A DNA stretch of 29,949 nt from Eledone cirrhosa. Its lineage: Eukaryota. This document shows, in pieces, positions 23,541-23,783 of the stretch; position 1 is the stretch's first letter, and every line of letters begins with the position of its first letter. The notes beneath the pieces were generated by a model that was not told the origin of the DNA, did no database searches, and saw only the letters and a list, made by a program, of their open reading frames with translations. The translations under genes were made by a program, and so were the position numbers. The stretch spans positions 1 to 29,949 of the forward strand of contig CAXHJY010000757.1 in the NCBI GenBank assembly GCA_964016885.1. Direction: 5' to 3'.

Positions 23541-23645
23541 ATATATATATATAGTGGTAAAACACTGGAAGGTAATATCCGTAGTGGTAGAGCACTCAGT
23601 CCATGGGACGAGTTAGGTAGAAGTGGTTACACAACAGTTAGTTCA

Positions 23646-23695
23646 CCATACCGAGAACAATTGTTTCGCCTTAGCGGATCTTCAGCTCGTAATGG
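23646..23695 (-). ncRNA. Minimal type I hammerhead ribozyme motif
   Basis: Minus strand reads CCATTACGAG-CTGAAGA-T-CC-GCTAA-GG-C-GAAA-CAATTG-TT-CTCGGTATGG: stem I of 4 bp + 2x2 loop + 4 bp, palindromic stem III ACAATTGT, triplet GUU. Confidence 0.6.
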
Positions 23696-23745
23696 CCATT
23701 ACTAGCTGAGGATCCGCTAAGGTGAAACAATTGTTCTCGGTATGG
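23696..23745 (+). ncRNA. Minimal type I hammerhead motif (diverged mirror copy)
   Basis: CCATTACTAG-CTGAGGA-TCCGCTAAGGT-GAAA-CAATTG-TT-CTCGGTATGG; a G->T change weakens stem I. Confidence 0.45.
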
Positions 23746-23783
23746 TGAACTAACTGTTACTAACTGTTGTGTAAGCACATATT

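Follow-up and report, generated by a model that had tools for sequence, protein, structure and literature searches.

A zero-spacer palindrome at the edge of hammerhead stem I in Eledone cirrhosa, very probably left by a Penelope-like retroelement

Two hammerhead ribozyme (HHR)-like folds of 50 nt lie on opposite strands of a contig from Eledone cirrhosa, at 23646-23695 (minus strand) and 23696-23745 (plus strand), and abut at a single axis, 23695|23696. This arrangement raises the question of what kind of element left the palindrome and why its halves meet where a ribozyme begins. The first-pass annotation had proposed that cDNA synthesis of an HHR-bearing retroelement stopped at the ribozyme boundary and folded back there. 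We examined the locus within its window, the whole 29,949-nt stretch that was analysed, which is made up of microsatellite-rich, animal-type DNA. Positions in the arms are given as s, counted outward from the axis in ribozyme sense, with s=1 as the first base on either side.

When the arms were aligned, they mirrored each other over 73 nt around the axis with zero spacer, confirming that the two folds meet directly at the symmetry axis. The junction itself (23692-23699) is an 8-bp perfect palindrome, ATGGCCAT, with loose ends before 23692 and behind 23699. The alignment also bears out the differences reported between the arms: four substitutions (s=8, 15, 28 and 70) and, on the right, a stretch of 10 bp duplicated in tandem (23749-23768, plus strand; units 23749-23758 and 23759-23768). 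The substitution at s=15 falls on N7, which reads CTGAAGA on the left and CTGAGGA on the right. The annotated extent, 23623-23778, has the wrong start: because the left arm extends 70 nt further, the insertion begins at 23553 and occupies 23553-23778. Its long left arm (23553-23695, minus strand) holds s=1-143 and has its terminus at (TA)n, and contigs of the family to which it belongs align from 23540/23541. The short right arm (23696-23778, plus strand) holds s=1-73 plus the duplication. The part found in one arm only (23553-23618, minus strand), delimited by loose ends at the TA run and by joints, is a tail of about 65-70 nt between two 3' ends of the family. The left target is the (TA)n run at 23540-23553, with loose ends before 23540 and behind 23553, and the right flank (23779-23891) is AT-rich/(TA)n followed by (AG)44. 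Both flanks are thus (TA)n, and no target-site duplication is discernible.

The first-pass annotation placed a hammerhead in each arm. The core is indeed present on both strands, but a stem-checked HHR descriptor passes the left arm only. The left type I motif (23646-23695, minus strand; Rfam, folding and descriptor) has a stem I of 4+4 bp with a 2x2 loop, the core CUGAAGA at 23685-23679, GAAA, a palindromic stem III and U17 at 23656. Its stem II is 2 bp long and is closed by U·C, a private change from the family state U·U. In the right type I motif (23696-23745, plus strand; fold comparison), the core is CUGAGGA at 23706-23712, stem II is closed by U·U, and a private G>T at 23703 breaks stem I. 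This change at s=8, which costs one stem I pair, is the only reason that the right arm fails the descriptor. The same descriptor found five motifs in the window. Across 200 local shuffles it averaged 0.06 motifs, and 0 of the 200 yielded one with a palindromic stem III of at least 4 nt.

Rfam supports the two motifs weakly. RF00163 matched the left arm at 14.3 bits (gathering score 34, E=0.54) and gave no HHR match in the right arm; over the whole window there were 405 Rfam matches, and the 150 listed are to microsatellites or hairpin miRNAs, below gathering scores. The HHR fold lies above the minimum free energy of the monomer in both arms (-6.7 vs -12.1 kcal/mol on the left, -0.9 vs -10.7 kcal/mol on the right), and homodimers pair in silico through the stem III palindrome. 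The G10.1-C11.1 pair is absent, being U·U in the family and the right arm and U·C in the left arm; natural HHRs are known to vary in both respects, some having a stem II of 2 bp or a mismatched U10.1·U11.1 (PMC3088659). As judged from its sequence, the left arm has the core of a type I hammerhead (CUGANGA, GAAA, UH and three stems). With one ribozyme on each strand, any single transcript would hold only one of them, so that the two would be unable to dimerise in cis and would be passengers of the insertion; as an inverted pair they are predicted to be inactive.

We followed the copies of this element in four public sequencing runs aligned to 23430-23750, comprising the contig sets X1, X4 and X5 (two organisms) and the raw RAD reads X17. 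All family counts rest on these four runs; the small-share runs X6-X16 were left out. The alignment covers the right arm over s=1-55 only, and s=70 and the duplication lie outside it. Aligned records, the neighbouring family included, number 16739 contigs in X1, 542 in X4, 48 in X5 (the second organism) and 29690 reads in X17. They represent a dispersed, 5'-truncated and diverged multi-copy family, with thousands of records in 4 of 4 runs and in two organisms. The first-pass reading had been made to depend on a conserved family core, and CUGANGA and GAAA are in fact kept across the family, with N7 and loop II varying. The family seems to have U at each of 10.1, 11.1 and 17, which for 10.1 and 17 is derived partly from per-kind change counts. 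Pattern scans for prokaryotic or viral relatives gave 0 and 6 metagenome matches and 120 viral-contig matches, and 0 of these 126 loci align to the element.

No read or contig among those listed spans the full 23430-23750 stretch, and the exact locus is known from the assembly alone, as would be the case for an assembly or library fold-back artefact. We hold such an artefact to be very improbable. Each arm carries a private substitution that sets it apart from more than 98% of family depth in X1 (s=8 on the right, where 23703 differs from 93055 of 94716; s=28 on the left, where 23668 differs from 53866 of 54074), and there is the duplication besides. Diverged copies with the same architecture also occur in two independent runs.

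The palindrome as a whole forms a hairpin of -108.4 kcal/mol (z=-19; as stable in 0 of 200 shuffles), in which the two hammerhead cores are only 20 nt apart. A read-through RNA would be predicted to fold into this long -108 kcal/mol hairpin and thereby bury the sense HHR copy. So stable a hairpin, with one of the changes at the free N7 position, is what a selected bidirectional ribozyme pair or a small-RNA hairpin gene might look like. However, the remaining changes break stem I on the right and alter 11.1 on the left, and A/G at N7 is a common polymorphism throughout the family (in X17, 1155 of the 2913 reads at 23681). The N7 change therefore does fall on a free position, as had been pointed out, but gives no sign of selection. 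Matches to miRNA families are all far below gathering scores and no orthologous conservation was seen, and we consider a selected function extremely improbable.

Does the axis coincide with a boundary that the parent element already had? At 23695, 3129 of 3284 X17 reads (1624 + 1505 of 1684 + 1600) continue upstream past the axis, as do 34 + 17 X1 contigs and contigs of the second organism, all with one consistent sequence. In these non-inverted copies, CCAT is preceded by ATG at s=-4 to -2 and a variable base at s=-1, mostly T (23695 G>T in 16790 of 22348 depth, X1). The resulting ATG-N-CCAT is a quasi-palindrome centred on the axis with 3 bp of self-complementarity. Since the base at s=-1, mostly T, is unable to pair with the T at s=51, stem I of the parent starts at s=1. 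The placement of the centre at the 5' edge of stem I consequently holds in non-inverted family copies. We rejected the objection that this placement is circular, as the parent stem I, in the same register, does not pass s=1. A second CCAT at s=-6 to -3 of the parent offers an alternative stem I register, and near 29195-29205 there is a short motif like that just upstream of the axis in non-inverted copies. A MITE or foldback DNA transposon was also rejected, as copies differ in their junction and most continue past the axis.

The insertion is very probably a dead, extremely 5'-truncated copy of an endonuclease-bearing Penelope-like retroelement (PLE), and it likely belongs to the Hydra clade. 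Assignment to the PLEs draws on 3'-end sequence features, namely an HHR near the 3' end (73-143 nt from the family 3' ends), multiple 5'-truncated copies, an inverted head-to-head copy and a tail at one end. The (TA)n target, the U·U closure and an AC..GT stem III are features that correlate with the Hydra clade and do not define it. Among the Hydra HHR rows in Files S1/S2 of PMC8557442, U·U closure is found in 14 of 26, U17 in 10 of 26 and AC..GT in stem III in 26 of 26, and 26 of 27 families there have a (TA)n target. Arithmetic on the table of the same paper, with 'position' taken as the start of the 5' flank, puts Hydra-clade HHRs about 70-190 nt from the 3' end. By our own count, U17 is present in 24 of 56 aligned PLE HHR motifs (PMC4209133). 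The link to PLE genes is indirect, because the window holds no RT or GIY-YIG frame (0 of 84 frames match in Pfam) and the published files searched hold no match (10 short family motifs compared with the 3' ends in the PMC8557442 supplement gave two chance matches and no other). The family's upstream sequence is visible for 30 nt only.

Several other repeats in the window bear hammerhead motifs. At 725-1046, a perfect palindrome with 161-bp arms belongs to another HHR family (cores at 953 on the plus and 818 on the minus strand), and its two arms share one end point, next to TA-rich runs. A third inverted stub, at 1191-1426, has a Hydra-type HHR at 1344 (minus strand) with U·U closure and U17, and a 35-bp inverted copy of the stub's 3' end at 1392-1426. 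A single HHR at 15389 (plus strand) lies between TA runs within 15340-15460 and has a 12-bp stem II and a 7-bp stem I; its stem III resembles one listed for Hydra-1_Obim (PMC8557442). Immediately to the left of the palindrome, at 23405-23540, is a very high-copy family with a depth about 4x that of the element in the run alignment. This neighbour has a decayed HHR-like GAAA/long palindromic stem III and strand-change joints of its own. It stops at the (TA)n into which the 23553-23778 insertion went, so that the run at 23540-23553 also borders the 3' end of this second repeat family. Its relatives lie at 29140-29290, which looks like another head-to-head join, 29330-29461 and 25090-25170. The window further contains repeats at 24775-24900 and 27990-28150 that by their look we take to be SINE-like, and minisatellites at 13657-13851 (30-bp, 6.4 copies) and 22761-22948 (53-bp, 3.6 copies).

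The first-pass annotation took the palindrome at 23553-23778 to be older than that at 725-1046. When the arm differences of the two are compared (4/73 vs 0/161; Fisher p=0.009), this is likely, although counting only the two demonstrably private changes gives p=0.096. The palindrome at 23553-23778 is thus probably the older one, unless the arms of 725-1046 were homogenised.

How did the two arms come together? The family has two preferred 3' ends bordered by (TA)n. The outer one, s=143, is seen in 98 X1 contigs and 1871 X17 reads before 23540, and the inner one, s=78, in 53 X1 contigs and 1 X5 contig before 23618; further joints put inner 3' ends at s~74-75. The joints 23554>23634, 23559>23630 and 23639>23621 bear on the tail that separates them. 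The palindrome uses one of these ends for each arm, s=143 on the left and s~73-78 on the right, where the arm ends at s=73, 5 nt before the main inner 3' end.

On balance, we lean towards an origin from two cDNAs that were primed from both target strands and met head to head in (TA)n. In work with one purified PLE protein, both strands were cut and extended and AT-rich DNA was preferred; its RT starts at two internal sites bounding the tail, and 5'-shortened RNA gives shorter products, with no need for HHR cleavage (PMC11167929). This biochemistry predicts two cDNAs, one for each strand and start site, which matches the arms of 143 and 73 nt as well as four tail-only joints elsewhere in the family. 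The element protein would nick both strands of the (TA)n target, and each nick would prime one cDNA, one from the outer start at s=143 and one from the inner start at s~73-78. Both cDNAs would end at about s=1, either because the template RNA has its 5' end there or because ATG-N-CCAT lets their 3' ends anneal. Repair would then join them into a zero-spacer palindrome, and the arms would drift afterwards. L1 twin priming is comparable in that a cDNA is primed from each of two nicked strands, and an inversion results when microhomology joins their ends. Unlike in L1 twin priming, the arms here share s=1-73, so that either two templates or strand displacement would be needed.

Two parts of the original proposal fare less well than its general idea of an inverted HHR-bearing retroelement, which is supported. 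A stop of cDNA synthesis at the ribozyme boundary is not supported as worded. An RT would get to s=1 only once all of the ribozyme had been copied; if structure had stalled it, the stop should lie near s=50 and not at s=1. Most of the family copies seen also pass the axis. Since the great majority of X17 reads run on upstream, s=1 is not an obligatory end. We infer that the position of the axis is explained by an RNA 5' end or by microhomology instead of a structural stall. Nor is fold-back of the cDNA supported as worded, and two primed cDNAs account no less well for the two distinct 3' ends.

Fold-back is nevertheless the close rival, and we regard it as possible, if doubtful. Here, one cDNA (or antisense RNA) would have folded back at ATG-N-CCAT and self-primed the second arm, as in the self-priming model by which palindromes at mostly head-to-head PLE junctions have been read (PMC3846280). 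The parent has its 3 bp of self-complementarity exactly at the axis, and three listed joints have tiny extra inverted pieces near s=3-10 (23614>23718, 23652>23707 and 23623>23705). Of 8 common polymorphic sites seen, the arms agree at 7, a point in favour of fold-back, and differ only at N7, where both alleles are common in the family, a point against it. Fold-back should also retain the parent loop base at s=-1, mostly T, and the perfect mirror seen here would need a rare template with G(-1) or later repair. In addition, fold-back alone does not account for a short arm that stops at the second of the family's 3' ends. The arm differences as such do not decide between one template and two.

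Inverted duplication at the DNA level is favoured where, as here, there are microsatellite flanks and the axis has a short quasi-palindrome. An ordinary truncated insertion could accordingly have been duplicated later, by a replication template switch or a hairpin-capped break. Against such an event, the duplicated stretch comprises element sequence alone and stops near a family 3' end, copies at other loci have near-identical junctions, and within 30 kb there are inversions in each of three separate HHR families. We judge a DNA-level origin to be improbable and continue to prefer two primed cDNAs.

If two cDNAs were joined in this way, do other copies join at the same place? Joints were read by eye from a listing of 15 of 36 joints and 12 of 21 between-letters rows. 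Ten of those listed are head-to-head joints within the element, and in 8 of the 10 one arm starts at s=-2 to +11 (23572>23696, 23596>23704, 23605>23718, 23614>23718, 23652>23707, 23652>23718, 23623>23705 and 23637/23693). In the remaining two, 23618>23717 and 23654>23722, the start was not resolved by eye. Joints 23660/23728 and 23662/23727 were excluded from the count, as we read them as collinear copies with 1-2-nt deletions. For the clustering, binomial p lies between 5e-5 and 0.012 according to how wide a range is taken as detectable, and some of the joints may not be independent events. In 4 of the 10 joints the other arm ends at s=73-82, that is, it consists of tail only. Diverged contigs also cross the axis collinearly with small gaps (one in X1, two in X4, and a further two in X1 whose gap, of 3 nt, is at 23694). 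The assay is limited by what is detectable: X17 molecules end at 23532 and 23662, so this run seems to be AATT-cut and would therefore miss symmetric palindromes, and assemblers also break at young palindromes.

These data make a local junction hot spot at the 5' edge of the HHR plausible in the family of the palindrome. The axis lies 10 bases upstream of the core here, at the edge of stem I, whereas in the other inverted HHR stubs of the window the junction is 59 nt upstream of stem I at 725-1046 and about 43 nt upstream of it at 1191-1426. The predicted cleavage site, s=40|41, was considered as a major 5' end and rejected, as there is no pile of ends among those listed; three joints end at s=42-44, with one possible cleavage-site run-off that stem I homology explains equally well. 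We also considered whether stem I might mark the 3' end of an intron, as it does in D. virilis; there is a pyrimidine tract upstream but no AG at the axis. Our search, with most subscription journals outside it, found no published report of a junction cluster at HHR stem I. We tentatively suggest that the 5' strand of stem I is a true hot spot marking where a short template RNA has its 5' end (a start site or a trimmed end), and that the junctions of tail-only arms with inverted bodies may record in vivo twin priming from two internal RT start sites. If so, the two ends of the PLE template can be mapped from genomic debris, and the head-to-head structure, long unexplained, needs no antisense template.

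As a locus, the palindrome at 23553-23778 is ordinary retroelement debris, and its value is as a lead. It bears on the mechanism of head-to-head inversion in PLEs and on the role of their hammerhead, both open questions in PMC3846280, PMC8557442 and PMC11167929. Because the family has thousands of copies, two mapped 3' ends and junctions that apparently cluster at the 5' edge of the ribozyme, it could separate two-primer from self-priming models by genome analysis alone. The lead worth following is the stem I junction cluster together with the tail-only arms, neither of which we found in print in a search without most subscription journals.

When compared with known systems, the locus shares with non-LTR retrozymes (bioRxiv 10.64898/2026.07.22.740005) a non-coding sequence, a type I HHR and descent from PLEs. 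We rejected that identity, as those elements form head-to-tail tandem arrays and the present locus is one inverted pair without an array. With the minimal and variant PLE HHRs (PMC4209133, PMC3088659) it shares type I topology and a palindromic stem III suited to dimers, whereas it lacks the consensus G10.1-C11.1 pair and its cores, 20 nt apart, are closer; opposite-strand HHR pairs 100-700 bp apart have already been reported (PMC4209133). Like the Hydra-clade HHRs of PMC8557442, it has U after CUGANGA, U before GAAA, AC..GT in stem III, U17 (frequent in that clade) and a (TA)n target, but its stem II has 2 bp and theirs 3-7 bp.

The closest likeness is to the inverted insertions of EN+ PLEs. 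The head-to-head arrangement has already been described for PLEs, and the present locus adds a further family. An inverted 5'-truncated copy, a tail at one end and microsatellite targets are recorded for EN+ PLE insertions, among them Penelope-13_HM, whose inverted 5'-truncated copy carries a second HHR (PMC8557442). The palindrome agrees with such insertions (PMC3846280, PMC8557442) in its head-to-head 3' ends, junction palindrome, one-arm tail and AT-rich/(TA)n target. Here, in contrast, the junction lies at the edge of HHR stem I, a position that the available parts of those sources do not discuss, no gene is left, the arms measure only 143 and 73 nt, and the tail spans 65-70 nt, compared with 30-40 in published PLE tails.
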